Assembly (NCBI GenBank): GCA_008632985.1
Contig: QPGO01000118.1
Span: forward strand, 186,001 to 223,223
Reading direction: 5' to 3'
DNA: 37,223 nucleotides
DNA from: Psammoneis japonica
Lineage: Eukaryota
Shown: piece by piece, positions 1 through 37,223 of the stretch
Numbering within the stretch: the first letter of the stretch is position 1
Layout of the letters: the number at the start of each line of letters is the position of its first letter
Notes under the pieces: model-generated
What the model was told of the DNA's origin: nothing
Seen by the model: the letters and a program-made list of their open reading frames with translations, nothing else
Database searches by the model: none
Made by a program: the position numbers and the translations under genes

Positions 1-275
1 CAGAGAAAATGGGATCGTGCGAATGGGGAATCTTGCCAAATCCCCATTCGTTTGCACTTGGATCACATTAAATTGATCGTGCGCTTGCATTGTGGATCGT
101 GCGAATCAAGCCATCACGCGCCATGCACGAGTGATGTCATCGTGTGGAATCACGCTACCATCGTGGGCCAGACGACGGGCTGGTGTGCTTCACACGGATG
201 CTCTCTTAGCATCCTTCTGGAATTGCCTGAGACCTAGAGCCACGCCCTCCTGTGGTCGTGCTTCCCAGGTGCGTG

Positions 276-629
276 TCAACAATGCTGCTTTGCCATGCAC
301 AAGAGGCTTGTGCACGGTCTCGCCGTGTTGTCCAGCAGCGAGGCACACTGCAAAAGAGATGTTCCGCTGGATGGGGAAGATGATTGGGTTGTGCGGCGCA
401 ACTGTGTCAATGGGGGAGGGAGACCAGATGCAGCAGTGCAGTGCCGAGACAGGTGATGCTGCACATTGTTTTCGGAGTCAAATCCACGTTGTCCACAATG
501 AGGACAACTGAAAGACTTGGTGGGAATGGTGGAACGGAGGCAGCCAGTTGCAATGTGCCTGCTGAGACCACGTTTGGAAAAGAAACCAGTTCGTTCACAC
601 CAAGGACAAACAAGACCATCAGACAACAT
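276..629 (-). pseudogene. Degenerate ORF with two C2H2/C2HC-like zinc fingers, probably transposon-derived
   Basis: VCPWCERTGFFSKRGLSRHIATGC and FSCPHCGQRGFDSENNVQHHLSRHC (CxxC-F-L-H spacing twice); ATG at 629; lies in the mutated domain. Confidence 0.5.
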
Positions 630-1020
630 GGCCAATGCACAGAGACAAAGGAGTTGAGAAGAGAATCAAAAGGAAACAGTGTGTGCAGCAACAATCACTT
701 GGGGATTTGGTGAGGGTGGAAAGATGTGAAGAGAAACAAGGTGCGATTGATGGGGGAAGGCGTCATGGCTGGACAGGACAGAAGGATGGAATGGGCAGGG
801 AGAGAAAGTTTAGAAGACTGCCTTGACGAATGCATGCGACAATTTTGATCCAGAAAGTTGATTGACACACAATCCAGAAATCAACATGGAACTGAACAAA
901 CACATGAGGCTTGTTGGATGGGGGGGGGGGGGGGGGGGGGGGGGTTGAATGGTTGAATTGGGGAGTGCAGATGTTTGTTGTTGAACATTTCACAAATGCT
1001 GACTTGACAAATCAGCATGA

Positions 1021-1700
1021 TCATGGATTGGGGGGAGAGCATGTCGGGTTTAATTTCAAGCAATCTTGACGGCTGGTGCGACACCTGGATTGTTGGTGTC
1101 CCAGATGTGACTTCATCACATGCACTTTCTGTGTGGCATCCCGGATGGTTTCAGAAAAGCTGTGCTTGTGAACCTCATCACATGATGAGGGGGAGAGCTC
1201 CTCCATGCCCCTGTCATGCTTGAGGTGTTTGATCCCTTGACAATGAGTTTGCCATCCTTTGCAACTTCCAAACAAAATTCATGATTGCAGCTGTCAACAT
1301 TCTCAGCATGGGCAATTGCCTCTTTGAAAAGAGTGCAAACAGGGTGAGTTTTGACAGTTGAAACCATGTGCACACAATTGAACAATGGAGTCCAAGAATG
1401 AGAGTGAAGCTTGAGTTGCTGCTCAATCAGCACAACAAACTCAAAAACAAACATGACAACATCCCAACTCACCATCTTGCTGCCTGTGCTGATGATGATG
1501 ATCAAATTGAGTGCATGTAAAACTTTTTTGCAAGAAGTCCCAAGTGTTGAATTCCCCAGCTCTCACTTGGCAGTCTTCAAGCCATTTTTGCACTTTGCAC
1601 CAGCAACTGGTTCCCAAGGAGGCATTGTGGTGAATCTTGTTGTTCTTCCTTCTTCCTCTTCTTCTTTCCAGCTTGTTGCTTGCTTGGACAGCCCACTGGA
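1021..1700 (-). pseudogene. Decayed relative of the Crinkler-like gene, sharing its intron (1322-1472)
   Basis: 1322-1500 aligns to 7792-7975; exon end HHHQHRQQD|G versus QQQQHRRQD|G; donor GTGAG at 1472, acceptor TTTTCAAAG at 1322; the flanking exons differ from those of the intact gene. Outer limits approximate. Confidence 0.7.
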
Positions 1701-2395
1701 AATTGCAAAATTCAGACTTGGGCATGCTGGTGCCCAAACAAGAAACAACAGCAACACACGCATAAATTTTTGCATGACCCCAGTGTGCATGATGCATGCA
1801 TGACATCTGCTGCATGTTCAGCACCAGACTCCACAAGGGAAAAAACAGACAGATGCAAGGGGGGAGAGATCCGTGATGACCAGAAATGTGTGGTGGGAAT
1901 GAAAGTGCAGTGACAGCCAAGTTGCCCACCCTCCTGCATTGAGAAGCCTCTGAGTGGCCATCATGTGCTGTTGCATGCTGCAAAGTTGTGCACACATTCT
2001 GCACAGATGTGACATCACAAAAAACCATGTTGGGGAATGAGCACACATTTTTTTGCACATGCTCCACACAAGCACTGCGAGGTCTCTCTTGTGTGACCTC
2101 ACTGTGCAAGCCATCAACCAGGTCCACAATTTCAAACATTGATCATCTTGGAGAGTCAAATCAAATTATGACTCCATTCTGTGGCAAGTCTGCTTTCCTG
2201 CAGAAGGCAAACATCACCATGGAAGAATGACACCAATTTCAAAGCACTGCAAACACCACCACTGTTGTCTTGCACCAATCCACATTGACTCACTTTGCCT
2301 CCAGTGGGTTGATTGGTGTTGCAATTCACAAGGGGCCCACTCACCCCATGAGCATTCACACCACAGGTGGAACAACTCACACCATCAACAGTCTG

Positions 2396-2612
2396 CTCAA
2401 ATTGTTGATGTTGTGTGCCTGTGCAGGACAAACCTCAACTTGTTTCCTCGCAATTCTGCAACATGTCCCTCATCACATTTGTTTTGATTGTCATCATGCA
2501 ACCTCAAATTGTTGATGTTGTGCCTGTGCAGCAGGACAAACCTCAGCTTGTTCCCAATCCTGCAACATGTCCCTCTCATTGCATTTGTTTTGATTGTCAT
2601 TGTGCAACCTCA
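2396..2612. repeat. Tandem duplication, ~107-bp unit x2
   Basis: ctcaaattgttgatgttgtg...gttttgattgtcat..tgcaac starts at 2396 and 2503; a third ctca starts at 2609. Confidence 0.9.
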
Positions 2613-2949
2613 TGGGACAGCATCTCATGCCTTGCCTGAAGGCTCAACACTCATCACTTTGTTAAAATTTCTTGGTCTTGTGTGCCTCAACACCATGCAG
2701 AACTCAGGCCATCAAATGGGGAGAACATTGCAGTTGCAGCAGACATGCACTTGTCATGATGCGATTCTTTGCTCCATGTTTTCTTGGTCTCACACACCTC
2801 TCACATTGGGTTGTGCCTCCCCACCCACCACCTCCCCACCCACCACAGCTTGTGCCATGTGTTCTCAAACTCACTTGTGAGCCATTTGTTCACTCTGCAA
2901 AGGACAGAAAGTGCAGCTTCCTGTCACATTCAAACTCAATGATCAACAG

Positions 2950-5260
2950 ACTCATGGTCTGAACTGCTCAACCCTGGCCCTGCTCAGCAGTTTCAGTCCT
3001 TGGCCAGTTTCCTGCAGCCAACTGCGTTGCTTGGCCACATCAATGTCACACCATGGGCGGCCATCACAGAGGTGTGGGCCTTGAGCCACCCCACTCTGTC
3101 TGCATTCCTTCCACTCTCTCAACTCTTTTTGTTGCTGCAAGGGCTTGCATGGAACAGAATTGTTGATCTGCACACCACACTGCATTGCCTCTGCATCCCA
3201 ACCAGCAACACTTGTTGCAAGTTTGGGGAGAACAAGTTGGTTGCAGACAGTGCTGCCATCCCACACTCCAAGTTGCACAAGTTCCATGGCATTCACGAGG
3301 CAACTGCCTCCAGTTTTCTCAAGCTCCCCTTTGTTGAAGGCTCCTGCAGCCCTGCTGGCATTTTCAGCAAGCACTGGGGCAACTCCCAGATCTGGAATCT
3401 TCTCTGTTCTCTCATTTTACTTTGATCCTGAGGCCTTCAGCCGCTCCAATCTCAACTCCACTTCTGTGCCCCCCTCTTGAGCAAAATGGGGAGTGACAGG
3501 ATTTGAACAGGATTCAGTTGTTTGCGCTGTGTCAGTTTGTTGCACACAGACACCTGTGCTCTTGGTTCCACGCATTGCTGTTTGATGCAGTTTTGCTCTC
3601 AAACCCACACACATGGCTCACAAAAATGATCTCAGGTCACCCCTGCACAGACAGTGGATTGCTCTCAGGTTGTGAGCTTCACTTTCGTGAGCAACAAAAC
3701 AAACGAGTGCTTGCAAATGACAACATGTGATTTGTGCACTTCTGGGCACCTCTGCCACACACCAGCATGAAATGAAACAACAATGCTCACAATTGCATGA
3801 CCACATCAACACTGCTGGCAGACCTGATTTTGAATGAGAATGCTGCTGTTGCTCTGTCAACATCAATTGTGGGCCTTCATTGCTCTCATTGTCAACATTT
3901 GACAATGTGCTGGGTGTGGCGTGGCACATTTCATGCTTGCACAAGACCTGCGTGAGAGTTGTGCCATCTGCTTCTGCACTGGGTTGGATGCTGCATGCAC
4001 ACTGGAGCCTGCCATGCAAGACTTGAGAATGCCCTTGCCACCAAGCTCTGTCACTCCTCCAACAACATTCACCTTGAGCCTGCAAATCCAGTTTCCACCC
4101 AACCACTTGTCTGCCCCGCCAATGTCAGCATTTCCGTGCCACCTCCTGCTTCTTTTTCTAAGCTCCCTCCTGCTGCCACCACTGTGTTGCAGTTGACTCC
4201 CAAGCTCCTTCTCACCCTCCTCACAGTCTGCCCACTCCCTCTTCCAATGATTTGACTGGGGCACACCACTTGAGTGTGAGAACAAAGTTTCTTGGACCCT
4301 CTGGCCACCTCTGCTGATGGATCCCTCACAATTGCCTCACTCAATGATGATGGCATCTTCCTCCTCACTTTCACTGTTGAGACCACCTTGGTGGCCTTGG
4401 CTTCTTCTGCCATCAATTTAACTTTGGCTCTTTGCTTTCCTCCACTTGCTGTTGGCCCAAGCCTCCTTGGTCCTCCTCCTCTGACCTGCTCTGCAACTCT
4501 GACACTTCCCATTGCACCTTTCTCCATGCCCTGACCTCTCCATCCACCCTCCTTCCTTCTGCTGATTTTGCCTGGAACCACCTTTCCAGTGATGCATGAT
4601 TCTGCCTCTCCCTCTCAATGGGCCCTTCAAATGCCAGGGCATGGCCTGGCATGCCATCTTTCCATGATGCCCTTTGCTTTGCCTCCTCCCTTCACACTGA
4701 CTCATCTTCCATCCCTTCTGCCAAATGCCCCACATGCTGCATCATGCGCCCCTGCCACTCTTCCACTGCTGCAGCTGTTTCCCTGCCTCCTTCCATTCTC
4801 ACTTGGTTCAAAGCCACTTCTCCACCAGCTGGCAGCTCACTTCTTCTTTTCATCAATGGCAACTCACTTGTCAATGAGCAGAGAGCAAGCTTGCTTGCAT
4901 CACAGCGCACCCTTGTGGCTCTCCTGCTGGAGCTCTGCATCTCTGGGCTCCTCAAAGATTGCTCGTGGCTTGCACCACAACCAACCAGAGACACAGCTCT
5001 GCAGGGAGCACATCATCAGCCACAAGAGAACGAGTGACAGAAGACAGAGAGCAATCGTCAGGCGATTGCTCCAAAATTGTCTTTCGGCAACAGAGCTGCC
5101 AGCACTGAGTGAACGTTGGATCGCATGGATTCATGTGAACAAGTTTGAAGGGCAAGTCCCCTCCAAAATTTGCCTGCTCAGCCGATTGCGGTCCCTGAAG
5201 AAAATCCAATCAGCACTTGCGACTGTTGTACAGGGTGCTGTGATGGTGACGAAAAGTGCC
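2950..5260 (-). mobile_element. Unclassified decayed coding element (possible retroelement ORF1/gag-like remnant)
   Basis: Broken minus-strand frames with charged protein-like text (e.g. QQKELREWKECRQSGVAQGP, ERERQNHASLERWFQAK); no diagnostic motif recognised. Confidence 0.3.
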
Positions 5261-5686
5261 ATCCAGTGAATTAGCAGGGATAGATGGGATGTAAAGCAGT
5301 AGATTTCAGCATGCGTGATTTAGTACATTTTGATGAGTTGGATCTCTATTAATGTTCGAGTCTAGCTAGGTGCTGGTGCCATTCCAGGATTCGCACTCCT
5401 ATCATCCTTGGATGAAGCTTTCGCATAAACTACTTGACCGAGTCGCCCACGCCCCAAAATTGTACGAACTAAAGCAGCTGCTGCATAGGATCCCAAGCGG
5501 AAGGTAAATGTCCCAAAAAAGCAGCCAGCGAGTTACACCGGGGCAGAAGTTTCAGTTGAATAAGACACGTTGCCACAGACAACGGACACCATCAAGGGTA
5601 CTGAGGCAGTCAAACGAGCTTGTTTCGTCGAACCATCACTGCCGTAGACACGTGCGACGATGCCCGCAGCGGCTCGAGAGAGAAAG

Positions 5687-8160
5687 TTATTTACACGGCG
5701 TACCACCGGGATACGGCTTTGTCCCATCATCACGAATCACCGCAGATGCGAGTTCGTGGACAAGAGCGTTTACGTCACCTGAATTGCTGTGGTCGGCGCA
5801 AAGAAAACGGGCGATTGTGGGACAAGATACTTCATTAACCACCGCGACAGCAGTCTCCAAGTTTCTTGGATGTTCTGCATACCCCTCATGATTGAACTCG
5901 TGCTCACATGCAAAGACGGCCGTAAAGAAGAAGTCCGATTTAGTTCCTGCATGCTCAGAAGCTTTCGCGAAGAACGCTTCACAATATCCCTTCAGTTTTG
6001 CTCGGTCATTCTTGTATCCCGTTTTGCATTCCACTATGACGTACGCAGCCTTGAAACCAGCCGGGACTTCAATTGAGTATGCAAAGTCTATCCATCGATT
6101 TTGATGAGAGTTGTGCTGGTCCAAAACGATCCATGTATAGTTCGTTGTGTCACCGCCGGCAATCTTCTCATAGACTTTTGGGCAAGAGAGTGGAACTGCG
6201 CCAATGCATTCCGAGAGACGCTTGCGATTAGGCGGCATCAGCGCATCAAATTCTGAACGAGGAGACGAAATATCGTAGGCCACCAGCCATTCAAACAAAC
6301 GGCCTTTGATTCCAAACTGAAGGACTCCACTGACGCGGAGGAAAGATATAACAGTGTTGCAGCTGTGTCCTGAGTTCGTACGGGCAAGCAGTCGTTCAAG
6401 GAGCTCGAGAACACATCCAGCGGGGTAGAAGATTGAAATATCGCTCCCCATCATTTCCTTCACGTTGAGCCCGCCACCCGCAATATAAGACTTCTCAGTC
6501 TCGGAACAGTTTTTGAGTATTGCGATGCCGTTGACTATCATCTCAGAGTTGATATCCAGAATCTTTGCGAAGACAGTGCATGCAACTGAAGATACGTTGA
6601 TAGTTTCTCCTCCCATGTTTCCAGCAATTTGTCGACTCATTGCACTAAGTGCCGAGTGATACGCATCATCAACAAGGGAGGGATCAGCGATGCCCTCGCC
6701 TCGTTTGTCCCACAAAGCACAGAAAAATCGTTCGGTAAAGCGTCGGTTGTGGCGACAGCGTTCCAGATATTTCTCGTTGTCTTCAGCGAAAAATGGCATG
6801 AGCTCATATTTCCTCGCAAGCTGGCATACAAAGTCACGAGAAAAAGATCCCTCCATCGGTATCAATTCTGTTTTCACTTGACTGCCCACATTGATCTGTG
6901 TGTCCGAGAAGATATTGGTGCCTGTCATTACAAACTTGAGCCACGAACGTTGGTTCTCCCCATGTTTGTTGATCAACGCATCACATTCTTTGGCCAGGGT
7001 GGTCACAAGGGAATTATCTCTGTCTCCGCCATCACTTGGAGCTCTCATAATCGATTGAATTTCATCAAAATGAAGCACCAGCACCTTTCTCTCTAGAGGT
7101 ATCGCATTCGTTTCGCAGTCGCAGAGTGTTGCTACCCATTTCAAGAGGAACTGCTTTACCTCCCTCATCGTGGACAAGTTCGCGTTAGACATCTTGAATT
7201 TGTGATACTCCAAACCAAGACTATGAGCTGCTTCTTGTACAGTCCGGGTCTTTCCTGCCCCGGGCATCGCAAATATCAGAGCAAGCGTTTTCACCTCCGA
7301 AGCCAACGGCTTTGTTCTTTCTTCTCTTCCCTGCTGGAAGAACAATCGTAACGAACGGATCACCTCGTCTTCGTACAACTCTGGTATAGCTGCATTGAAA
7401 GGATTCTCGCGAAATAGGTTTTGGATACATTCAGCGAAATTCGACTCCTCCTCGGCCTGGATACCGGTACTAATGTATTCGTCGCTAATAGGACTTGATG
7501 TAGGAGTACGGTAAGGCGACAACTGAAACATAATCCCGAAGCTGGGGTCACCCTCAGCATAATTTGCCGTATTTTTGGGATTGTCGCTCAATTTTTCCCA
7601 ACCCATAAGCATTTTTACCGTGACACACGCAGAGTCAACGGTCCGTTCAAGGCCCGTCGCCTCCCAGAACTCACCCACAGTCGATGGAAAACGCTTATCG
7701 TGGAACTTAATAACATTCGTGACTGACAAATTGTGGTTTCTTACGAAGACAGTAAACATGCCAGTCCGCTGCTGCTGCTGCAGTGAAGCTACTTTGAAAA
7801 GAATAGACAAGTACAAACAGTATGAGTTTTTATAGTTGAAACCGTATGTGCGACGAAACAATAGAATCCAAGAACGAGAATGAAGCTCGAATCGCTGTTC
7901 AACCAGCACAATGAATTCGAAAACAAGCGACAACATCTCGACTTACCATCTTGCCGTCGATGCTGCTGCTGCTGCGGACCAATTGTGTATTTGCCGCCAT
8001 CCTCAAGCGATTCAAAGCCCGAAATTTCGTATCCTTCAACGTCGATCAAGCATCGTACCCCACGCCCGTGAATCCACGTGCGGAACTCTTCATCGTTGCT
8101 TAATATTGCTTTGCTCTCTTCACCACTCGCGTCTACTACTCTAATCCTCTTTGGCGCCAT
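5687..8160 (-). CDS. Crinkler/RHS (CR)-like protein: N-terminal header + P-loop NTPase + PD-(D/E)xK nuclease-like domain; exons 8160-7947 and 7791-5687, ~772 aa
   Basis: ATG at 8160; phase-1 intron 7946-7792 (GTAAGT...TTTTCAAAG) joins QD-V-ASL in frame; Walker A AMPGAGKT, Walker B LVLHFDEIQ; C-terminal WIDFAY...VIVECKTG. Confidence 0.8.
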
Positions 8161-10099
8161 TGTAAATAGACAGCAATCTCAACAGTAGAAACGGCAGCAG
8201 CAAAAGCGTTATCGAATAAATGTACCAGAGTCTACGTGGTAATCTTTCTACGGTTTTCGCGCGTAGGATGCAGGCTTCGCACAACGCGCGGAAGCGACGA
8301 CAACACACAAGACGACAACACTCAAGACGACACATTCATCATCGTTGGTCGTTGGCACTGTAACACAAATCGGCTGCGTATCGTCGTCGTATTAATCGCG
8401 ACAGTGTCAACAATGAACCAAGAGCGGCATTGTGTGTGAAGCATGCGAACACTCATTCGTTCTGCTTCTTTCTGTTTGCGCTTGTTCTTTGTTCTTGTGG
8501 GTTTGGTTTCGCGTCGGCATTGTTGTTGGTGGGGCTGGTGCGTTGTTTCTTTCGTTCGTTTCCTTCATCATGTGTCTCTCTTGACCCATTCTCGATAGCT
8601 CTTTGGCAATGGAATGTCTCAAGGGAGAGGTGAAGCTTTGACAGCAACTTGTCGGGGAGTGTGGCTTGATTTTGGGGCGGCTTGTTTGCAAGAGAATTCC
8701 TCGTGTCACAGCTTCCACAGGAAACAAAATGCACTTGCTGGTTTCTACACTGCCTGCCAAAAAAGGCACTCCTAAGATCCAAGTCTTGGGCGATGTTGCT
8801 TTGTTCAAACTTTCCCACAATGTTTGTCTCACAGACATTGCTTTCCCTTTCCTGAACATTCCCACCAAACCACCATTGTGCGCGGCAAACATGCACTGAA
8901 TGGCTCCCGCACTTGATTCTTGGTGATTGACATCACAAATGGTTGATTGGAGGGCAGCCTTCATGGCATTCCGACAATCAAGGCGTGAGATTCCCCCTTC
9001 TAGAGCATCGCGCCATCGGCGGGTGGTGGATCCGCAGCAGCCGTTGTCGATTTGCTCGACATTGTCGTCATTTGGACCGCAAACAACCAAATCTTCCGGC
9101 ATGAGACGCAGTTAAAATTTCATGGCAATGTCTGTTGATCTGCAGTGTCTGAAGTTCTGACTCTCATTGCAGGTTGAGCAGCAGCAACGCAAGGTTCGTC
9201 ATTGTCGACAACATGCCGGTGCGGCAGTGACACCATGCCAAGGTTTATTTTGGATCTCAGCCGCACAAGGCGTGTGTGCTCTTCATGCTTCCGCGTGGCT
9301 TTGCCGTGCAAAAAGGCCCGTGGGTTTTTGCGCTTTCACGCGAAAAAGCGAAAACCATGATTTTTCCGCACCCATGCGGTTTTGCGCGATTGCCCCATTC
9401 AAACAAAATTTGCAATGATGAAGAATGCCAAAATGAACTGACAGAACTCTTCCATTTAAAAACAAACACAAACAAATGTGTGCAGTTTCAACAGTGACAG
9501 TTTTGTCTGATGGCATTGCAAGCCCCAGCTGGGACAGACTTTGGACCTGCAGTTTGGGCAATTTTGAAGAGATCTGTGCCTTGCGCTGTACAAACCCGGA
9601 TGACACATCTGAGTGGACCAGGGCAACAGGGTGCAAGAAAGTGACGGACAGACGCATGCATGCTGGGGACGCATTGCCATTTGCTCTGTCAAATTCTGCA
9701 CAATTTGCACCATCCTCAATTGAGGTTTTTACCTCAATTCATTGCAGGTCCTTGGGAGAAGCACCAACTCCTCATCATGGAGATCCTCGCCAAATTTTTG
9801 CCATGTCTGTCGGGCATCAGGTTCATGAATTTTCCCAACCCCTCCCGGCACCGGTTCAGGTGGGCGCACATGCTGTGCTGGACTCGCGAGCACTTGCCGG
9901 TGGAAAAAGCACACGTCAACACACAAGTCGACAGTCAACACAAAATGACCATGATGGTTTCAAATGATTCCTCTCCATCACCTTCCCCCAAAACATCACC
10001 ACTTGATGCATTTAAGAGTGTTTGTGGTGTTTTGTTTCTGTGGCTGTCACAGGCCCATTTCTGCCAAAATTAGAAGTTGTTTACAGACACTCTGTTTCT

Positions 10100-11040
10100 C
10101 ACGCTCCAGCACCGCTCCCACAGGTGCCACAATGAATGCAACGCAGTCAGCACCATTCAGGCTGCTGCCACACCCTGTGCTCTTTGTGCTGCACGTGTTG
10201 CAGCAGGTGACATTGTTTCCATGGGTGTTGTGTCCCCAAAATGTCAAAAGTGCAATTGCACCATCTCACTCTCTATTTTTTGGCACGTTCCAGCGCCTCC
10301 CACAGGTGCTGCAATGAGTGCAATGCAGTCAGCACCATTCAGGCAACTGCCACACCCTGTGCTCTTTGCACCACACGTGTTGCAGCAGGTGATGTTGTTT
10401 CCATGGGTGTCGTGTCCCCAAAACATCAAAAGCACAATTGTGCTGTCTCACTCTCTGTTTTTTGGCACGTTCCAGCACCTCCCACAGGCGCCATGACGAA
10501 CGCAACGCAGTCAGCACCATTCAGGCAACTGCCACACCCTGTGCTCTTTGTGCCACACGTGTTGCAGCAGGTGACATTGTTTCCATGGCTGTCATGTTCC
10601 CAAAATGTCAAAAGCATGATTGCACTGTCTCACTCTCTATTTTTTGGCATGCTCCAGCGCCTCCCACAGGTGCTGCAATGAGTGCAACGCAGTCAGCATC
10701 ATTCAGGCGACTGTCACACCCCATGCTCTTTGCACTGCATGTGTTGCAGCAGGTGACATTGTTTCCATGGGTGTCGTGTCCCCAAAACATCAAAAGCATG
10801 ATTGCACTGTCTCACTCTCTATTTTTTGGCACGTTCCAGCGCCTCCCACAGGTGCTGCAATGAACGCAATGCAGTCAGCACCATTGAGGCAACTGCCACA
10901 CCCCATGCTCGCCCTGCCACACATGTTGAAACAGGTGACATTGTTTCCACATCTGTCATGTTCCCAAAATGTCAAAAGTGCAATCGCGCTGTCTCGCACT
11001 CTGTTTTTTGGCATGCTCCAGTGCCTCCCACAGGCACTGT
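10100..11040. repeat. Tandem array, 182-bp unit, ~5 copies
   Basis: tccagc(g/a)cctcccacagg recurs near 10105, 10289, 10471, 10653, 10835 and 11017; period is not a multiple of 3. Confidence 0.95.
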
Positions 11041-11189
11041 GGTGACGACAAATGCTGCTGTGTGATTTTACACTTCATGATGCGTTGCACCATCTGCCAG
11101 TGAATCTTGCGTCCAAGGGACTCCAAAGGTGCCAAAAGGAACTTGCGCTGAATGCTGAGAGAGTTCGGTGTTCAAGATTGAAGGCTGGC

Positions 11190-14100: not shown

Positions 14101-14466
14101 TGCCGCCTGCACAAGCTGCACATGACTTGCAAACATTCGGCCTTGAGGAAACAGCTGCGCAGCCTTGCGTTCAAAGGCTGTCTTGCAACGCTCATTGTCT
14201 CTCTCTCGACTTGTCTCCTCATTGGAAGGAGCATGCTTTCGCATCTCCTCTTCCAAACCTGTGGTGACCCATTTCTTGGTTAAGAGCTCTTTGCTTTGCT
14301 TCTTGAGCTCGACTTCTGGTGTGTTGACGGCACCACACTGGCTGGCCCAGTCGGGCACATACAACGCATGAGACAAACTCATGAGACTGCAGAGTTCAGC
14401 CTGTTTGCTGTCCTTGCGGTCTTGATGAGCTCCACTCGTCATGAGATGGGTCTTCAATTTTTGCAA
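11190..14466 (-). pseudogene. MULE transposase remnant (FAR1/WRKY-like finger, DDE core, SWIM, CCHC knuckle), several frameshifts and stops
   Basis: CKCPF...HQHTC; DILFLDSQK (~13270-13310); GWPCIGP; RIIFADQ; GNHCHLL; SAAAEQNHASL; CPCLLRIVFGAQC; CSACGKPRHTIQNC, in MULE order across ORFs 13726-14466, 13340-13810, 12164-13150, 11501-12043 and 11190-11678. Confidence 0.85.
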
Positions 14467-21793: not shown

Positions 21794-21889
21794 AAAATTG
21801 TTGTTTTAGTCCAACACAAGTGCCACATCATTTTATTTTTAGAATAGAATGAGTCAACCCCAAAAGTATTGGTGATGCATTAGCTACGG

Positions 21890-22290
21890 CTGTCGGTGGG
21901 TTTCCGAAGCTCTCAATGACAAAAGGTGCTTGGAGTGTCTTGATCTATGGGAGAACGTGATTTCTGAGAGTGGCGCTTTGGCTCTTTTGAAAGCTGTTGA
22001 AACGAACGACTTGAACCGCAGACGAGTGATCGCGATGAGTAAACAGTCTCTTGAATCGTGCGAGACATCAGTATTTTTAAGACGCCTCCATGCAGTCGTC
22101 CTTGTAGCCCCTCTTCTTGGCCAAGGAAAGAATCAATGATCGAGATAAGCCTGAAATGTTTCAGCGGTACCATCCAGTCGCAGCGCAGGGACAAAAGGTC
22201 AAAAACGACGACATGATTGATTCGTTTTAGTCCGACACCAGTGTCACATAATAAAATAGCTTTGAAGTAAAATTAGCCAACCCCAAAAGC
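21890..22290 (+). pseudogene. Partial, deleted duplicate of the LRR gene 3' end and 3' UTR
   Basis: Matches ~21410-21870: ggtgcttggag..tcttgatctat, gtctcttgaatcgtgcg, catccagtcgc..cgcagggacaa, gttttagtcc.acac, caaccccaaaag. Confidence 0.85.
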
Positions 22291-25180: not shown

Positions 25181-26631
25181 CTAACTGGAACCGCCACCAC
25201 TGCTTCCGCCTCCATAATGCTTCTTGTAGCCGCCACCACTGCTTCCTGAGCTTCCATAGCCGCCGCCGCCACTACTTCCTGAGCTTCCATAGCCGCCGCC
25301 GCCACTACTTCCAGAGCTTCCAGAGCCGCCGCCACTACTCCCAGAGCTTCCGGAGCCGCCACCACCACTACTCCCAGAGCTTCCGGAGCCGCCGCCACCA
25401 CTACTTCCAGAGCTTCCAGAGCCGCCACCACTACTTCCAGAGCTGCTTTTGCCAGGACCAGGGCTCGGGCCAGGGCATTCGTTGCAATTGGTGTCATCAC
25501 CCAAATACTTTCCAAAGCAGCTACGTTGCGTGACAATTGTACACGATCCAGGTGATCCACCACTGCTTCCAGAGCTCCCACTTCCTGAACTACCGGAGCC
25601 GCTGCCGCTGCCGGAACTACCGGAGCCACTTCCAGAGCTGCTTCCGGGACCGCCACTAGAGACACCGGGGAAACAGCATGCCCCCATTCTAGTGTCGGGA
25701 GCAGGACAGTCTACTTGAGGACACCTGAGGCCCTCTTTGAGCACACCGCCAAACCTATTAGTGCAGGCCCTTTCCGTAAAAACGTTCCTGCACAAACCAT
25801 TCGGTAGGCAGCAAGCTGACTTGGACGGGCGTGGCGGGCGTGGAGGTGTGGGGCAAGTAACTTGTCTACACTTTTTTCCTTCGCTGAACACGCCTCCAAA
25901 TTTGTTAACGCAGGTCCTTTCTTTAATGACGTTCCTGCACGAGCCGTCCTGTAGGCAGCAAGCTGATTTAGGAGGCCTGTCGGGAGGTTTGCAGATGCCG
26001 GCGTCCCCACAGCTAGATCCGATTCCTTCAAAGTTTCCACCTTTCCTCTTGCACATGTGTGCATCCGCAGTAACGCAACCGGAACTTGAGCAGCAGGCTC
26101 CATAGATTGGGCAAGTTTCTTGATTGCAATTGCTTCCAACGCCCCCGAAGTCGCCGTGCTCGTAGATGCAGTACGCTTGTCCTGTCATCTTGCACTTGCC
26201 AAGAGCGAGCAAACAGCAAGCTCCAATGCCATACTAACAAACAATCAGAAGTCACAGTATCGTTAGGGTGATCGAGACCTTCGAAAAAGCAAAGGTATGA
26301 AAACGAGATGTAACCAAACGTACCCCAGAGAGGACTCTTCCGGTCTTGAAAGCTGCCTCATCTCCGACAGCTTCTTCCAACACGGGCTGAAGAATCGATG
26401 GGAGTTAGAAAAATCGGGGAAATGAAAAACTGGAAGCTAAAGTGAATTCTTCTTACCTCAGCCTTGGACGGGACGCGGTCTGAAATTGAAATAAAAAGCT
26501 TCTCAAATTGAGAACACTGCCATGATGTCACTTGTCAACGTGTCGACAGCCAATTGCGTATGGTACGTACCTGGAGCTGCACAAACTGCCACGGCAAGAA
26601 GAAGAATGGCTCCCCTTGAGAGTAGCGTCAT
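25181..26631 (-). CDS. Secreted Cys-repeat, Gly/Ser-rich protein (~399 aa); exons 26631-26571, 26479-26457, 26386-26324, 26233-25181
   Basis: Signal peptide MTLLSRGAILLLAVAVCAAP; three GT-AG introns splice in frame (1200 nt total); GRVLSG motif; five (G/S)ACC-C-C-G-C-C repeats; GGGSGSSGSS tail. Confidence 0.85.
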
Positions 26632-27404
26632 CTTGTTTTCAAATCAATCTGCTATTGCGTTTCACGACGATCCCTGTTGCAAAAATAATGAAAAGATACA
26701 CCGAACAGTTGCGAATCAATTCTCGAATTTGGATTTGACGTCCATGATGAGAACATCGTGATCTTGTGTGATGTGATCTACATTTAAAACAATTACTTAT
26801 GAATCTACAGCCACCTTTGACATACTATCGATATTATTGTGCACTGAATGTGTCGACCGTCTGTGTACATTTAGGGATTATAAAGGTATATCAAAAAGTA
26901 TGGTGAGAAAGACGAGTTGGTTCCTAAATATTAAAATGTGTGGAATGGACACAATTGTGAATGGTTGTCACTATTATCATTATTAATCATGGATAGAATC
27001 AATTGAGTTTGCGTTTAAATAAACTCGAACATTTAACCATTATTGAATGACCGTTGGGCCTACGTAGAATTTTCTGAGACCAACAAAATTGGGGATGGTT
27101 CAATTGCCCACACATTTTACTGCTGTACATGGCTCTACTCTAGCTCTAGAGTCTACTCTCTAGCAGCAGCTACCACTGGATGGTGGCTCTAGCAGCAGTA
27201 GAGAGTAGCTCTACAGCAGCTACCACGGCAGTGCTGTTCGTGGTGTGTGCTGGCAGCACTGTCGGCCACGAACAAAAACACCACGACTGCTGCTCTCTTC
27301 ACCAAGCAGTGGGGCAGCACAGAGCTTGGAGAGAGAACCAGACCAACTGCTGCTGGCCAGCTCTCTCTAGAGCAGAGAGTGCAACAACTGTGCACAAATG
27401 CCTG

Positions 27405-28080
27405 ACACCCAATTTGTTCAACAATGGGCTTCACAATGTCCAGAGTTGGTTTGAGCCCCATTGCCATTTGACAATGACGGAGCTTGCCACAACAAGTGAT
27501 GATGATTGTGTGTGATTGTTTGAGCTCCCAACCTGACTCCTGATGAAAGCAAAACACAGTCAGACCCAACTTGACAAAATGCTTAAAGCCAGTTTTGCAC
27601 TTGAGAACATCTTGCACTCCTCTTGGCAAAGAGAAGACAAACTGGGCATTTCAAAGCCCTCATTGAATGAACAAAAATTAGAGACCAGTTGAGCTCATCA
27701 ATCTTTCTCAGGGATGATTGGAAAGCCTGCCCACCCAGCAAAACCAAAAGGTCTTGCCACTCCCAACTTTACAAGATGTTGAAGCTTTTTCTTGAACATC
27801 TCACTCTGAATCTTTTGGAGACAGAGCAAGGGTTGAAAATGTGAGGCAGACACAGTGGCTTCAGGGTCTGCTCCAAAGTGAGCCAACTTGCAAGGATGTT
27901 GACCCAATTTTCCATTGAGTGTCTCAGGAAACTTGGGTGGCACTTGTTGCAATTTTTTTTGGTCTTTTGAAAGACAAGATCCTTCAGAAGATGCTGGCTC
28001 ACGCTTGGCACCCAGAATTGAAGTGGAGTGCTCATCATGTGGAAACAGCACAGTGAGTGATGGCTGGCATTTGCCTGAAT
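27405..28080 (-). mobile_element. Ty3/Gypsy pol fragment (linker + N-terminal reverse transcriptase), decayed, within TpA-depleted domain 4 (~27230-28940)
   Basis: KFPETLNGKLGQHPCK, FKKKLQHLVKLGV, W..FPIIPEKD, QDVLKCKTGFKHFVKLGL, TIIITCCGKLRHCQMAMGLK. Confidence 0.85.
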
Positions 28081-28188
28081 TTGTTTTTGCTGCTTCTGGA
28101 CCTGCAAGAGAAAAGTGAACACTCTCCCTGTCATCCCAGAAAGCAAGCTTTTTCATTGCTGGTGTGGACTTGTTTGTTTGTTGTTTTA

Positions 28189-28789
28189 CAGCACCAGATG
28201 AAAAAAATTGCATCAATTCCTGCCTGCGTTGTTCAAAAATGTGATCAAAGAAGCAGATGATGAAGGCACAAGGTCACATTTGGAAACATGTTCCAGCCCT
28301 CCTGGGTGGGACTCCATGTGCCACTTGGTGCACAGAATTTCCATGTGCAAGTTTTGCATCAAAGTTGCTTGGCAGCAAATGTGTTGATGATGGCCAAGAG
28401 AAAATGAGGCAGTTTTGTCATCCGAGGAGTGCTTGAAGTGCGTTGTCAGTGGCTTGCCCCTGGGTGTTTTCTTGAGACATTGAAGAAATTGTCCAGCCCA
28501 GCTTTGTTCTCAAAAAACTGATCACAAGAAATGACAGCCTTTGGCTTTGCAAAATGGGGGGCATGGAACAACTCTTTGCAAAAGAGTGCACACACAGAAG
28601 TGGTGTGTGCGCATGACACACAGAACATGATCAAAAAACATTCTGGGGAATGAATCTGGACAGCTGCTGTTCAAACAATCAGCATGTGCAGGATTTGTGC
28701 TGGAACAGTCTGCCAATCAGTGCAATTGAGGCATTTGGAAAAATCCAGTGAATGCTGGGCAGAGTCTGCATTTTTTTCATCTGGTGCTG
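28189..28789. mobile_element. Candidate ~600-bp TIR element abutting the Gypsy remnant
   Basis: cagcaccagatgaaaaaaat at 28189 and its reverse complement ending at 28789; TA on the left flank only. Confidence 0.45.
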
Positions 28790-29363
28790 CTGTTCCCCAA
28801 CTGGTTGCAAAAAGCAATCTGAACTCCACTGATTTGTCGCGAGATCGAAGTGCCTCACGTGAATCATCTGGAGGGGGGCTAAAAGAAACGAAAGTGAAAG
28901 GGAAAGAGAGAAGTTTCAAGCCACAGAATGCGCTGTTATGCTGACGCTAAAAAGTTGCTTTTCAAACAGAGGTGCATAAATCGTCTGTCTGTCGTCTTCC
29001 GCTCGAGTGTGCAAACACACCTCTGCGAAAGAAGCTACTACTAGCTAGAGTTTGTCTCCCATGGCGACCTGAAGTTGCACTCTGGAGATTATTCTAGAGA
29101 GCGTAACGGTAGGGCCTACGATAATTTTGATCCATTTAGCGATCTCCAAGCACAACTCCATTTTTCTCCAAGAATTTAACTCTCACATCGCGCTGGTACA
29201 GTCTCATGAAAATAGCAATGAAAATAAATAAACCACTCTGAGATTGAGCACTCAGCCAAATCATTCATTGCATATTCGGGAAGAAGCCAGCATACGCGAA
29301 CGGAACAAAGACATCCATGCATGGCCAAAGCGAAGAAAGAGTAAAACAGGATGTTCAATGCCA

Positions 29364-30512: not shown

Positions 30513-30729
30513 GATTAACTTGAAACTCTTCTGTGAGCTTCTGTCCTTGCTAAAGTAAATACGCAACCGCTAGTCAAGGATTGTACGATGGTAACCGAAG
30601 GCCAAGCTCTCCATTCAAGAAGCTCTGTGAGTCTGCTGCTGCTGCAATGACTATGAAAATTCTTGATTATTCAACACCCGACACCCCCGCTCGCGCGCTC
30701 GCAGATTGATTCACGTGTTGTATGTGCGG

Positions 30730-32240
30730 CACTGCTCGCTTCCACTGCCGGCACCGGCACACAGTTGCTGCCCAACTTCCTCAACTGAGGGGCTGAGAAA
30801 GACTTGCTTTTTTCTTTTTAAACAAACCTGTTCGACCCAGTGCCCCCTTTTTGGGGATGGATCCCGGTGTAACCCATGCACACCAAAGGATGCAGCAAAA
30901 ATCAGCTCCCACCAGAGCTTTCGCTGATTCTTTGTTGGTGGTTGGCCCATGATCTGCAAAATGTGTGTGCATTTCTGTCCTCCCAAGCAACAATGCAAAA
31001 CTTGTGGGCAACCCAAGTGAGACAGCTTGAGTGTTGCAAAAAAGTTGTGGGGCTGTTTTGTGGAGAAGAAAATGTGTGTGTGCAGTGGTGGCAAGAAGAA
31101 GACACATGTGGAGCTGGAACCCCTGTGTGAAGTCAGTCATGGTTGGTGCACAACAGGCTTGGCATGAGCTGTGCTTTCTCAGCACACATGCTTGCACATC
31201 ATTGGCTGTGACAACAGACACATGGCAGAAGTGGTGCTGCTGTGTCACAACAGGGGGGTGCCCACTGCAGGTGCAGTGCTGGACTCCCTTGCCAACAAGC
31301 AGCAAAGCTCTCAAACACGGACAGCTGCGCCGCCATGCACAAAAATGCAGGCTCATCAGCTGTGTGGGGCACCAAGCATGTGCAAAGCTTGCTGTGCATT
31401 GCAAAGCCCAGATCTGCTCTCTGCAAGAGTGGTGGTCTTTGTTGCAACACAAACAGCCCAGAAACAAAAAAATGTGGACAACTCTGCAGTGCACAGTGCA
31501 CTGAAGCATGCAGGAGGCAACACAGAGCTTGATCAGACAAACACATTCATTCATTGTCAACCCAAACATGCTGGTTGAATGAGCACCTGCATGTGAAGGA
31601 CACCAACAGTCAGTTGCAACTATGGCCAGCCAGATTGAAACAATCACAAAATTCCATTGAGAACAGCCAATCACTCTGCACACCATGGACTCCAGTGGAG
31701 TTTTGTCAGGCATGCCAAGTTGCTTGACAATGAGAACCTGTTGGTTTGTTTTGGAGACACAGCAGCTTTCATTGAAAAAAGAGCCTCTTCTTTTCAACAC
31801 TTTGCAGTCTTCTTCCTTCTCTCACATGCAGCACCTCCTGTTGTTGCATGGTGCAAACTCAGTGGCACTTTGCCATTCAGAGCTGTGCAAAATGGGGGCA
31901 CACTGAAAAAAGAGCAGAGTGTTGATCCCAGCACACGACCTGTGCATCATCACATGTGTGGCAGCATCTCTGGAATGTGAGCAGCTGCACCACCTGCAGA
32001 GAGAATTTGGCTGTTTTGGAGCAGCACACCACAGGGCCACTCATGACCTTTCAGAACACAGCATCAAGTGCAACCAGGTGCAACCAATGAAACTAAGTCA
32101 GTGCAGCAGTGGCAAGGTCTCAATGGGTGTGAGTCTGTCCACACCTCACCAAATTGGTTCGCTGACAAAGTGATGGAGGATCCAAAACAAAGTGATGGAG
32201 GATCCAAAATGCTTGAAGGAAATGAGTTTGAAGACTGAGG
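30730..32240. other. TpA- and CpG-depleted domain 5, unclassified decayed sequence
   Basis: Almost no TA or CG; no recognisable motif; 22-bp tandem duplication at 32165-32208 near the right border. Confidence 0.8.
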
Positions 32241-32455
32241 GATCCAGCTAACTTGACTTTCTAGAGAGAATACCTGCGGTCTAGTAGTCGTACAGTAGTC
32301 GGGTCTCAGCGATTGTTGGCACTAGCACAAAAGGTTGCGGGTAAGCTCCAACTTGCGAGAACAACAAAAAAGAGAACAATCTCCAATCTGCGTCGTTGTC
32401 GTACGCTATACTCTTTCTGCTACTCTCTAGAGTCTCGGTATTACCACATTCTTTT

Positions 32456-33844: not shown

Positions 33845-34513
33845 ATTGTTGTTATTGTTGGTTCATAGATTGTATGGAAACGACGGGAATGACTTGAGCA
33901 CTTGAGCGTCATTGTGGGATTGAGCATCGTCAGTCGTCAGTGAGCAGCGCACACGGACGAAGGCAAGACGTCTCGCGAAAAACGCGCGCGCAATGGGCAT
34001 ACATACGTTCATTACTACCATACACGTAGATTAGACAAACACTCAATCCTTCTTCATTTACAGTGCATCTTTATTAAGCTTACAAATAAATTGGTTCCTC
34101 CTTTATGGTAGGAACTCTGGACACGAAGTGAGGAGGTGTGGAACCCGGGCTGGTTTGGATTGCCATGCGCGCGAGCATCAAATTTTAGAGCTTTGATCTT
34201 TACTTGCCACCAATCATTTTTTAAAAAATTCGCACGCTTAAATGATGGGTTCGCAATTAATTAATGTGCGACGTAATTCTATATTTATGTTTTAACATTA
34301 TATCAAAAAATAATGGCGATTTAATTCTTGTGTTCGTGCATGGACACATTATAAGAAGAGACGTGGGTTTCCCCTTTTTGATAATTCTGGTGTGATCGTT
34401 CTATGGTAGATGATGAGAGAACTGTCCTAACGTTGTGTGTCACTGGTTGCTGAGTGTGTCTGTCATTGCAATAATGTGCTAACATCGATTTGTTAGATTA
34501 GACCCTTTGTTTT

Positions 34514-37223
34514 CTATCGGTTGTTGCCGGGCACGCCTGCAAGCCCGCGTGCAAAGCTTGGAACATTTTCCAAAATGTAGAAATGATTCCCACATGCAGT
34601 GTCAAAATGTTCTGTGTGTCAATTGGACTGCAAAATGTCATCGTGCTGTTCGTTGGTGAAGCATGTGACACTTTTTCCTTCCATCAACCGGAGCAGGGCG
34701 TTGTGCCCATCCGGCAGTCTGTGTGGACTTAAATCTCTCTTCAGCGGTTGCCGAAGATGCAGACCATTTCTGGTCTTAACCCTGGAGAGCATGACATGTG
34801 CCCAGTTTTGTGCACAGCTCCAGCCATGTACAAACACATTGTCGACACCGCTTCCTTGAAGCTTGTGTCCTGCAGTCGCGCTGTTCATTGTGAATGGCAA
34901 CTGGGTTGCTTTCAGTCCGAGCATGTGTTTCTCTTTTTCCTCAGCTGTCATCTGTTGGGTTGGGTCCTTCAAACAGGCTTTGAAAGTGGAAGACTTGGGC
35001 TTGAGCAAAAAGGTGGGTGGATCGATGCTTTTGTTGCTGTGCTTGAGTTCTACATGATCCACCTGGGATGCTGTGACACCTCGAATGGATGTTCCACAGT
35101 CCAAGACCACTTGCGATGAATGTTCTCCTGGTTTCAGCACGACTTTTGCTGCAGTTGCTTGTGTTCCGTTCGCAATGCCATTTGCCACATTTTCATTGTA
35201 CGGGATCATAACTCTACATCCCTTGCACGTTCGTAATGCTGGATCAAGCCTGCCAGATTGCATTTCCACATCGCTCTCTCCACAGTTTTTCCAGAATGTT
35301 TTGCACACCGGGAAAGGCCTCTGCACTGTCTTGCTCCGTCACGCACTTGTAAATCGTCACTGAAAATGGCTAGAGAGTCCAAGACTTCTCCATCTCTTTG
35401 GTGCAGTCTCTTGGTCCTTTCCTCAAACAAGGCTGTGTTGATGGAGTCTCTTTTTTTGTTTCTGCATGATGCACGTTTGATGTTCTCTGGCAGTTGTTGA
35501 CCCTTTCTTGCTGCTCTTTCATTGATTTTGTCGACATCTTCGAGAGTCGCTTTGCCATCTCTAAATCGTTTTAGCAAACTGCCCCATTCTGGATCCTCAC
35601 TGAATCTGTGCATCCCATGCAACTGGATGTGGCAGTTCACCCATTCCTGGAATTCGGCACAGGTCTCCTTGTGCAGAGGGTGCATTCCGTGTCCAACTGG
35701 CTCGAGTTGTCTCAGGTCCCCTGCAAACACTGCATTTACACCCCCACAAGGCCTGTCTAAATTGGATTTCACGATGGATAGATTGGCATGTAATTTTTCT
35801 AAATCTCTTCTGCAAGCAAATGACATTTCGTCGACAATCAGCAGACGAGTGTCACTCCAGCTTTCCATTTGTGTTTCTGTCATTTCTTTTTTCCTGTTTA
35901 GATGGGCAACTCTGTGAATGGTGTCTCCTTTCAGAATTGTCGCTGCAACTCCAGTCATGGCAGTGACGGCAATTGTTTGTGCAGTGAATGGTCGTTCAAT
36001 TGAAGAGCAATGTTCTCTTGCGTGCAAAACAACAAGATCGACAACAGTGGATTTGCCACTTCCTCCTGCTCCATGCAAGAAACAAATTAACTGTGTGCCT
36101 CTTCGTTCTCGCACTTCAACTGACTCAGCTAATCTCCTGCATTCTTTGTTAAATTCGTGTCTAATTCCTCCTCTTACATTGCCACTTGCTTGTTCTCCCA
36201 GAGCATCTTTGTGGCACGTCAAAATGAAAGTTCCTGCCATGACTTCAAAAGCACGACTTTGATGTGGGTCTAGCTTGGCTTTTTTTGACCAATCAACCAA
36301 GCTTTTAGCTGAGCCGTTAGCTTCAAGGACATCAACGGCTTCTTCCGAATTAGTTGTGTCTTGGAAAGATCGTCGAATGCGTCCAGTCTTGGTCAGCAAC
36401 ACTCGAACTACATCTTGTTTCCTAATTTGAGGCACAGGTTCTTCATCTGCTTGCATGCTGTTTTCATTGTCTTCTTCATTGACCTCAATTTCTGGTGGCT
36501 CCATTGTTTCTACGACAGGGACCGAATTGACAACAGTGTTTTGATCTGAAGAAGTCATGCACATGCATGCCAAGTGCTGACATCCTGCAAGGTGACTTCC
36601 CTTCTGTCTGGTTTGTTTGCCACTTAAATTCGTGGGTGCGGCTGCTTCATCATTCGCTTCCATCCCGTCTTCGTGTTCATGGTTCACCAATTCATCTAGA
36701 AGAGCATCAAGCATTTGTCCTTGCAAAGCCGTTCCGATGTCGTCTTTGGTGTCGCTTTCACACCTTGCACCAAATTCATTGTCGTCCGATGTGCACTCAC
36801 GGGCAGTGCATTTAAGAAAATCTGATGTGCTTTTTAATCGCAGACAATTGGATTTTGCATCTTGCAGATTTTGCAAGAATTTCAGATTTTCTTCAGTGAC
36901 GATTTCTCTCTCCACTGCTTGACGGAATGATTGTAAGTGGGTTTGATCGAACAGTCGCACATCTGAGGCAGTCCGACATGATGTGAACAAAGCAAGAGCT
37001 GGCTTGCAATGTAACTCTTTTTCAGGCGAGGATGGTGCATTGCTGTCCATGAGAGAACTGCCGAATTTTGCTGCATCTGGGAAATCACACTGGTGTGTCT
37101 TAACTGAGCGAGTGTCTTGTCTTGGTTTGATGCCTTGCAGAAATCTGTTTGATCTTCTTTGATGAGATGGATGGGTGCAGGTGGAGTTGTCGAATTGGCA
37201 AAGAAGACCTTCATTTTTCTTGG
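34514..37223 (-). mobile_element. Decayed Helitron-like element, PIF1-family helicase half (ORFs 35206-37050 and 34619-35326, frameshift ~35330); continues beyond the window
   Basis: GAGGSGKS, TAMTGVAA...GDTIH, LLIVDEMS, GGVNAVFAGDLRQLEPV, HRF, NGTQA, HKLQG, HVMLSRV; GC-rich hairpin 34528-34552 downstream. Rep domain not in the window. Confidence 0.8.

Follow-up and report, generated by a model that had tools for sequence, protein, structure and literature searches.

We analyzed a 37,223-bp stretch of Psammoneis japonica contig QPGO01000118.1 (hereafter the window), in which blocks of DNA that are almost free of the dinucleotide TpA alternate with ordinary, gene-bearing DNA. An earlier reading of this DNA (the original prediction) had explained the pattern by a "reverse" form of fungal repeat-induced point mutation (RIP), that is, by a host process that mutates A:T to G:C at TpA in repeats. 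Composition was studied over the window, where TpA occurs 811 times, an observed/expected ratio (rho) of 0.33, and where CpG, CpA, and TpG stand at 0.64, 1.49, and 1.46, respectively. Segmentation with a two-state hidden Markov model run on TpA positions gave six TpA-depleted blocks, 20,098 bp when summed, with five normal segments between them. Blocks 1 to 6 contain 13, 36, 3, 5, 4, and 37 TpA (rho 0.02–0.20). These 98 TpA compare with 1286 expected from base composition and with 758 expected from the host rho of 0.59, a value that itself reflects a mild under-representation of TpA throughout. The five intervening segments have rho values of 0.49–0.65. The block borders lie within ~150 bp of those in the original prediction, which had also called the host genes normal, and both statements were borne out. 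The extent of erasure is 80% in block 6 and 96–98% in blocks 1 and 3–5. When the ten edges were pooled, rho TpA was 0.07 in the 200 bp just inside and 0.78 in the 200 bp just outside, the edges being as sharp as the first TpA of the flank can resolve.

The blocks have also lost CpG, on which the original prediction was silent: rho CpG is 0.13–0.56 in the blocks and 1.01 in host DNA. The summed rho of the pyrimidine-purine (YpR) dinucleotides was 3.88 in the blocks versus 3.94 in the host, as expected if TpA and CpG both turn into TpG/CpA, and ApA was not depleted (rho 1.23 versus 1.17). If the elements are assumed to have begun at host values, the logarithmic decay of TpA is 1.3–2.9 times that of CpG in each block, and the two decays track each other in rank across the blocks. 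The stop codons TAA and TAG occur 2.3 and 1.4 times per kb in the blocks versus 10.0 and 8.7 times in the host, a 4–6 fold depletion, and because only TGA stops remain, the blocks hold many long open reading frames (ORFs), 131 of them of at least 80 amino acids. These 131 were scanned against Pfam at E<=0.01 and 24 were rescanned at E<=10; 129 had no credible match, and the two that did lie in block 6 (a PIF1-like helicase) and block 1 (a C2H2 finger). A gene finder would take chance long ORFs in the TA-free DNA, such as 30784–31821 (minus strand), 4535–5266 (plus strand), and 1444–2142 (minus strand), for orphan genes.

Two general causes of such a composition were considered and rejected. 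GC-biased gene conversion does not apply because the rho values of AA and AT are near those of the host and GC content is barely raised, so that there is no general AT-to-GC change. Aberrant repair by a T:G glycosylase would yield CpG, yet CpG is depleted in the blocks.

Contents of the blocks and of the DNA between them

Protein remnants were recognized in two blocks. Block 2 (8394–15145; 36 TpA, rho 0.085; CpG rho 0.51) is a TpA-erased element in which the original prediction had seen a Mutator-like element (MULE). Its coding remnant lies on the minus strand at 11283–14376, where relatives of ~1000–1300 amino acids align. The 330-amino-acid ORF at 12167–13156 (minus strand) had 284 relatives at E<=1e-3 in an exhaustive HMMER search, which shows that the ORF is real, and tblastn with long relatives spanned ~3 kb of the minus strand from 14376 down to 11283. 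For one relative (P0148), all of the ten best named ESM Atlas clusters carry MULE, with scores of 0.86–0.91, and a sub-threshold match to ZSWIM1-3_RNaseH-like (PF21056) was found in 2 of 14 relatives. The MULE transposase domain PF10551 gave no Pfam match in the ORFs of the window. The MULE call is thus a plausible lead that lacks a Pfam-level match, and the remnant is probably a divergent Mutator-like transposase. In a search for terminal inverted repeats of block 2, the only notable pair (9756–9808 and 15040–15092; 53 nt, 79% complementarity) was not at both ends, and the element ends may be eroded.

Block 6 (34579–37223; 37 TpA, rho 0.20; CpG rho 0.56) is a partly erased, multi-copy element. 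It contains a minus-strand remnant of a PIF1-like helicase (34622–37221; PF05970, E 9e-16) in two frames, 35209–37221 and 34622–35338, and it passes the right end of the window before the N-terminus of its own helicase. Contigs were built solely from a public sequencing run (X1), which contains 87% of the words sampled from a 10-kb stretch; their summed depth over block 6 was 380–1750, where single-copy DNA has ~60. The original prediction had named the element a Helitron. A PIF1/AAA helicase is indeed present, but a Rep/HUH domain (Helitron_like_N) was found in none of the six long helicase homologues examined at E<=0.1, the N-terminus of the window copy lying outside, and we do not file the element as a Helitron.

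The other four blocks are TpA-erased DNA of no assigned class. Block 1 (1–5228; 13 TpA, rho 0.04; CpG rho 0.22) is repeat-like DNA that has lost both dinucleotides and passes the left end of the window. Its sole Pfam match is the C2H2 zinc finger, in an ORF at 279–665 (minus strand). A run of 25 G is found at 920–944. Block 3 (17951–20238; 3 TpA, rho 0.02; CpG rho 0.19) contains two diverged direct repeats, at ~18064–18667 and 19460–20125. The use of these repeats as a clock was rejected because their alignment is too diverged and noisy, with 79 apparent transversions; its 21 TG/CA double differences serve as an illustration only. Block 4 (27222–28879; 5 TpA, rho 0.04; CpG rho 0.17) had been called a Gypsy element. 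Reverse transcriptase, RNase H, and integrase were not found there, there was no Pfam match even at E<=10, and its 191-amino-acid ORF matched none of the longer proteins, so that this call has no support. Block 5 (30722–32248; 4 TpA, rho 0.04; CpG rho 0.13) has an ORF of 346 amino acids with no Pfam match and with a best ESM Atlas score of 0.76, which is chance level; it was rejected as a gene and is treated as spurious.

The normal segments hold long, intron-poor ORFs, one of them with two Helicase-associated (HA) domains. Another encodes a syntaxin-5-like SNARE, every named relative of which comes from a pennate diatom (40–43% identity), and on sequence grounds the host nuclear genome is diatom-like. 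Adjoining block 6, a stretch at ~34100–34578 is multi-copy (depth ~850–1150 versus ~60) with TpA rho of ~0.6–0.8 and CpG at a normal level, and thus represents a repeat untouched, or as yet untouched, by the TpA process. A GC-rich palindrome, GCACGC...GCGTGC, lies at ~34530–34557. Inverted repeats at 15107–15234 and 16047–16174 (77% identity) bound a CpG-rich (observed/expected ~1.7), TpA-normal stretch with (CACGA)n, a 10-bp repeat, and an array of a palindromic 21-bp repeat (15841–15942) in its interior; it may be a small, non-erased element with terminal inverted repeats. A host leucine-rich-repeat (LRR) gene (21180–21498 and 21900–22290) has an internal 159-bp tandem duplication of 91% identity besides diverged LRR units, and X1 contigs differ from the window near 21214–21255, where the differing units are probably paralogous. 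One minus-strand host ORF without Pfam match contains a GC-rich (0.61) coding tandem array at 25228–25444 with periods of 33, 63, and 96 bp.

Direction, context, and timing of the change

The direction of the change was read from conserved tyrosine columns. The helicase remnant of block 6 was aligned with 23 relatives of 31–52% identity. At the 16 columns where tyrosine is conserved, the remnant has no Tyr, seven Cys, seven His, one Arg, and one Gln, whereas 269 of 370 other conserved columns are retained (Fisher p = 2e-9). A single Tyr is left among 671 residues, versus 2.7% in the relatives. Many of the other forced single-step changes are also of the TA type, for example TTA to TCA, CTA to CCA, ATA to ACA, GTA to GCA, and, across the codon boundary, T|ACN to GCN. 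In the MULE-like remnant, 11 conserved Tyr columns read one Tyr, four Cys, three His, one Arg, and two Phe, with 138 of 214 other conserved columns retained, and Tyr makes up 1 of 756 residues versus 3.4% in the relatives; this remnant also carries changes of the CpG type (four Arg to His, two Arg to Cys, and five Asp to Asn). When both remnants are pooled, Tyr is kept in 1 of 27 columns and Cys or His accounts for 21 of the 26 replacements. The four peptide motifs from which the original prediction had derived an A-to-G change on either strand are present at the places it implied, and with 21 of the 27 conserved Tyr columns now Cys or His, that derivation is upheld. The depletion of TpA is mutational and not intrinsic to the elements.

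Two database proteins are similarly poor in Tyr: P0202, MULE-like, with 188 amino acids, no Tyr, 4.3% Cys, and 5.9% His, and P0141, a helicase of 483 amino acids with 0.2% Tyr. They may have been predicted from erased copies in other genomes. Among 120 SNARE relatives, which served as a control, none lacked Tyr.

We then turned to environmental relatives of the helicase element. A scan of metagenomes with the helicase alignment yielded 80 loci, and 63 of them have a rho TpA of at least 0.5, showing that the helicase family is not TpA-poor by nature. Four of the 80 are erased (rho TpA 0.03 in L009, 0.08 in L020, 0.16 in L069, and 0.19 in L057), with CpG at 0.3–0.5 and TG/CA at 1.4–1.7. The most strongly erased, L009, is only 39% identical in amino acids to the window helicase and hence represents an independent case in another genome; it keeps Tyr in 1 of 14 columns (seven Cys, four His), as against 301 of 337 other conserved columns (p = 2e-11). 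Two further loci have lost CpG with TpA normal (L047, CG 0.02 and TA 0.42; L050, CG 0.06 and TA 0.59), which makes the two decays separable and gives instances, in other organisms, of decay at CpG alone.

Polarity could be seen directly in the pair L069/L021, which is 91% identical over 1386 nt with 109 mismatches. The 50 TpA of L021 are read in L069 as TA 15 times, TG 17 times, CA 16 times, and CG and AA once each, whereas the 16 TpA of L069 are read in L021 as TA 15 times and CA once. The mismatches comprise 35 of the TA type, 13 of the CG type, 35 other transitions, 24 transversions, and 2 in reverse. Changes from TA to TG/CA thus number 35 against one in reverse, and those from CG to TG/CA 13 against one. 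This copy-versus-copy spectrum has the direction that the original prediction proposed. AA was unchanged at 127 of 138 sites, TA at only 15 of 50. L021 itself has a near-normal rho TpA of 0.52, and 4 of its 14 conserved Tyr columns are already Cys or His, as would be expected of a copy in which the same erasure has only begun and has gone further in L069.

The change is strand-symmetric and has a clear preference for the following base. Tyr-to-Cys and Tyr-to-His changes stand at 18:14, and TG and CA are about equally frequent in five of the six blocks, block 6 having 283 versus 222. The base after the surviving TpA of blocks 1–5 is A in 48%, G in 29%, C in 13%, and T in 11%, compared with 24, 21, 28, and 27% in host DNA (p = 3e-10). 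The same bias was found in block 6 relative to its normal relatives (p = 1e-8) and in the four erased metagenome loci (p = 4e-4). In the L021/L069 pair, half-sites changed at 13 of 22 TAT, 11 of 20 TAC, 5 of 21 TAG, and 6 of 37 TAA (TAY versus TAR, p = 1e-4). The half-site rates and the bias of the survivors give 5'-TAY-3' as the preferred site, with the A being altered.

Host-derived DNA inside a block has undergone the same changes. At 1330–1502 (plus strand), block 1 contains a mutated 170-bp duplicate of the 5' end of the neighbouring host gene (7808–7976; ~74–77% identity). None of the seven TpA on the host side is kept in the duplicate, which reads TG at three, CA at two, GG at one, and GA at one; none of the 11 host-side CpG is kept either (four CA, four TG, three other). 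In contrast, TG is retained at 11 of 13 sites and CA at 12 of 13 (23 of 26 together). No larger host-gene duplicate was found inside the blocks when 10 host ORFs were compared with the window by tblastn. Five tandem 182-bp units at 10115–11024 (plus strand) in block 2 were also compared with one another. Their variable columns include 47 transitions and 8 other changes, and their dinucleotide columns include 11 with only {CA,TG}, 4 with {CA,CG,TG}, and 6 with {CG,TG}; since TA and CG ancestry are inseparable in a {CA,TG} dimorphism, these columns were not counted as evidence of TpA mutation.

The X1 contigs span blocks 3–5 plus flanks, with 14 differences from the window over ~13.5 kb. Because the TA-free blocks 3–5 are reproduced from these reads, they are no polishing artefact, and the TA-free state that the original prediction described is present in the reads as well. 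Nothing from another run, X3, aligned with the window. Seven of the ten differences of the block-3 contig are listed: CA/TA at 18657, CG/TG at 18686, 18903, 19468, and 19491, one at 19490, and TA/TG at 19945 (window/X1). Block 4 has TA/TG at 27222, on its edge, and TA/CA at 28187. Besides the TA and CG types, the in-block differences include one other transition and one transversion, and host DNA has four differences in 9.9 kb. TpA differed between the window and X1 at 3 of 13 block sites, the edge site counted, versus 1 of 412 host sites (p = 9e-5, or 0.004 if position 27222 is assigned to the host), and CpG at 4 of 56 block sites versus 0 of 508 host sites (p = 9e-5). This concentration of differences on the remaining TpA and CpG suggests that the process acts in place and is recent. 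Over block 6, the mismatches of higher-depth X1 contigs to the window fall almost solely at YpR sites, and the 20 places listed there include five CA/TG double differences and three CA/TA sites. Of 395 variant places, 40 are listed; the totals for X1 are 287 transitions and 100 transversions.

Explanations for the loss of TpA

Taken together, these data make it very probable that a targeted process changes TpA to TpG/CpA in repeats, acting on them in place. On this reading, repeat-derived DNA undergoes these transitions in a manner restricted to the element and cumulative over time; both strands are hit equally and 5'-TAY-3' fastest, and adjoining single-copy genes are left intact, with the limit of the element respected to the base pair. 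Tyr codons become Cys or His codons and TAA and TAG stops are lost, so that the encoded proteins are wrecked and long open frames left behind. The core of the "reverse RIP" interpretation therefore stands, namely a non-intrinsic change of A:T to G:C at TpA on either strand, confined to repeat-derived blocks, without its claim to novelty, some of its transposon calls, and the error-prone polymerase it had offered as an agent. Because the signature is the one measured in mutation-accumulation lines of Bigelowiella natans (Mettrop et al., bioRxiv 2026, 10.64898/2026.01.13.699255), we take the process to be of one kind with that in B. natans, here at work on the transposons of a stramenopile. The silenced state of the blocks and a role of the process in genome defence are presumed. 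The loss of CpG would be a second process, the ordinary deamination of 5-methylcytosine in the same methylated elements.

As the agent we tentatively favor a TadA/ADAT2-like enzyme, recruited to repeats or heterochromatin, that would deaminate DNA adenine to hypoxanthine at T-A-Y; the case for it falls somewhat short of even. TadA acts on UAC in an anticodon loop, which fits T-A-Y.

Several observations weigh against the reading as a whole or against this agent. No recognizable transposable-element protein was found in blocks 1, 3, 4, and 5, and to call these four blocks transposons is an assumption. The multi-copy stretch at ~34100–34578 is normal, which means that not every repeat is hit. 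The differences between the window and X1, for which the block-3 list is incomplete, may reflect allelic variation, variation between strains, or leftover errors in the consensus, and one and the same sample may underlie both X1 and the assembly. The known eukaryotic ADAT2/3 tRNA substrates have no pyrimidine bias at +1. Finally, CpG decays here and is absent from the B. natans spectrum, and the two systems may not be identical.

The alternative that survives best, though we consider it rather unlikely, is that repeats carry a symmetric mark at TpA, such as 5-hydroxymethyluracil (5hmU) or a base-J-like derivative made by TET/JBP enzymes, or N6-methyladenine, whose mispairing or misrepair gives T to C or A to G. 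TpA would then be lost much as CpG is, as a side effect of silencing that needs no dedicated mutator. A mark of this kind would account for a palindromic dinucleotide target that is hit equally on both strands, for a decay that accompanies that of CpG and ranks the blocks alike, for edges as sharp as those of a chromatin domain, and for an erasure that seems slow and cumulative (80% in block 6, 96–98% in blocks 1 and 3–5). Base J occurs at TpA of the telomere repeats of kinetoplastids. In dinoflagellates, 5hmU is described as enriched on repeats and as silencing transposable elements, and older work cited in the same papers gives a TA/TC preference in Crypthecodinium (PMC11572971, PMC11071213); at base resolution, however, 5hmU had no sequence preference in Breviolum (PMC11071213). 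We know of no such mark in diatoms. In addition, hypermutation in B. natans is reported in the preprint as episodic and confined to a subset of lines, a pattern more in keeping with an enzyme under regulation than with decay at a steady pace.

We consider it improbable that single-stranded or extrachromosomal intermediates are deaminated and then inserted, as APOBEC3 acts on retroviral cDNA. Edges sharp to the first flanking TpA are what such editing would leave, and a helicase-bearing element could have a single-stranded stage. However, X1 contigs across the same insertion sites differ at block TpA, which argues that change continues after insertion; the mutations of B. natans, as the preprint describes them, arose in place; the host-gene duplicate in block 1 is erased too; and an erasure of 96–98% on both strands would be hard to achieve in one passage.

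Still less probable is error-prone repair of the Pol eta type at WA (WA to WG) in repeat chromatin, one of the agents named in the original prediction. Although A to G at TA belongs to the WA-to-WG spectrum, the undiminished ApA of the blocks, given above, is at odds with this agent; in L021/L069, AA was far better preserved than TA, and the change has no strand bias.

That the elements have this composition by nature or through selection, for example by avoidance of UA in transcripts, is highly improbable: TpA is mildly low everywhere in the window, but conserved Tyr has become Cys or His in two families, 63 of 80 relatives are TpA-normal, and non-coding blocks of no assigned class are equally erased, so that the original prediction was right to set this aside. 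Least probable of all, to the point of being negligible, is an artefact of assembly, polishing, or base calling, or RNA editing fixed through reverse transcription; modified bases can give systematic errors in long reads, but contigs from X1 alone reproduce blocks 3–5 with so few differences and the same erasure is present in unrelated metagenome assemblies, while RNA editing is at odds with the strand symmetry and with the DNA-transposon-type proteins encoded by both identified elements.

That transposon-like repeats in a diatom-like genome bear the same footprint, near saturation, and that several environmental relatives bear it independently, suggests a widespread process rather than a curiosity of one species. 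We speculate, with slightly less confidence than we place in the deaminase, that the erasure of TpA is the shadow of a repeat-directed base-modification or base-editing system, acting at T-A-Y on both strands, that is shared across SAR (stramenopiles, alveolates, and Rhizaria) and forms a second, ancient line of genome defence in eukaryotes. This would take in the rhizarian of the preprint, the diatom-like genome studied here, and no fewer than three other genomes from the environment. The agent would be either an adenine deaminase that acts on genomic DNA or a maintained mark at TpA, running parallel to the methylation of CpG. If so, the system would have been overlooked because stop codons are removed and its victims resemble long orphan ORFs. 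TA-free repeats do yield ORFs that are long and lack both stops and Tyr; gene predictions are inflated by them, and domain searches fail on them. There are two handles on the agent: any enzyme must match the 5'-TAY-3' preference, and the parallel with CpG decay makes a modification mechanism testable. Gene knockouts have been made in some diatoms (PMC9998398), and the enzyme question would be approachable if the footprint exists there.

Comparison with known systems

Fungal RIP resembles the present case in that dense transitions are confined to repeats with sharp limits and transposons are inactivated. It differs in chemistry: RIP changes CpA to TpA and enriches TpA and stop codons, whereas here TpA, TAA, and TAG are removed and reading frames lengthen. 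Deamination of 5-methylcytosine accounts for the CpG-to-TpG/CpA half of the change in the same blocks but cannot remove TpA; diatom transposable elements are reported as major targets of CG methylation (PMC9998398).

In animals, ADAR (on repeat dsRNA) and APOBEC3 (on retroelement cDNA) likewise cause deaminase-type, context-dependent hypermutation of repeats or invaders. Their substrates are RNA or replication intermediates and their footprint is strand-biased, whereas the change described here is found in DNA-transposon-like genomic DNA, in place, and symmetrically. The 3' preference of ADAR is for G, and the +1 preference here is for a pyrimidine. On the 5' side, ADAR favors U next to the edited A (cited in 10.64898/2026.01.13.699255). 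Dinoflagellate 5hmU is similar as a thymine modification on repeats, for which a TA/TC preference is reported in one species and which is linked to the silencing of transposable elements; the passages available from these papers describe no mutational erosion of TpA, and any link to the present case is conjectural (PMC11572971, PMC11071213).

The closest counterpart is the chlorarachniophyte B. natans. In the literature searched, with thin coverage of subscription journals, TpA hypermutation was described for this species only and not for diatoms, and neither near-saturated erasure of transposons nor a preference at +1 was described. The original prediction had taken the process to be undescribed, a claim overtaken by the 2026 preprint, which reports TpA-to-TpG/CpA hypermutation of integrated DNA of nucleocytoplasmic large DNA viruses (NCLDV) and virophages. 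According to the preprint, two integrated viral regions gained 231 de novo changes, of which 230 were A to G or T to C, all at TpA, the genome has 124 TpA-poor clusters, and an adenine deaminase of the ADAT2 kind is proposed there as well, with an ADAT2 candidate named (10.64898/2026.01.13.699255). The words "CpG", "diatom", "trinucleotide", and "context" do not occur in its main text.

The two cases differ in several respects. B. natans is a rhizarian with viral targets, and the present genome is that of a diatom-like stramenopile with transposon-like repeats. The NCLDV region is reported at a rho of 0.45, whereas values of 0.02–0.08 are reached here, near saturation. The reported spectrum is almost free of G:C to A:T, whereas CpG decays to TpG/CpA in parallel here, and a pyrimidine preference at +1 is seen here. 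De novo mutations were observed directly in B. natans, for which our comparison of TpA between the window and X1 (3 of 13 versus 1 of 412) is a proxy only. The likeness lies in the change itself: A to G or T to C at TpA, on both strands, in foreign or repeat-like DNA only, with a long-term, clustered depletion of TpA and an enrichment of CpA and TpG, and the TpA-poor coding sequences of B. natans are described as enriched for DDE and reverse-transcriptase domains. The feature in the window thus belongs to a recently described kind of process, real and striking, and what is new here is the lineage, transposon-like targets erased by 96–98%, independent environmental cases, the coupling to CpG decay, and the TAY preference.

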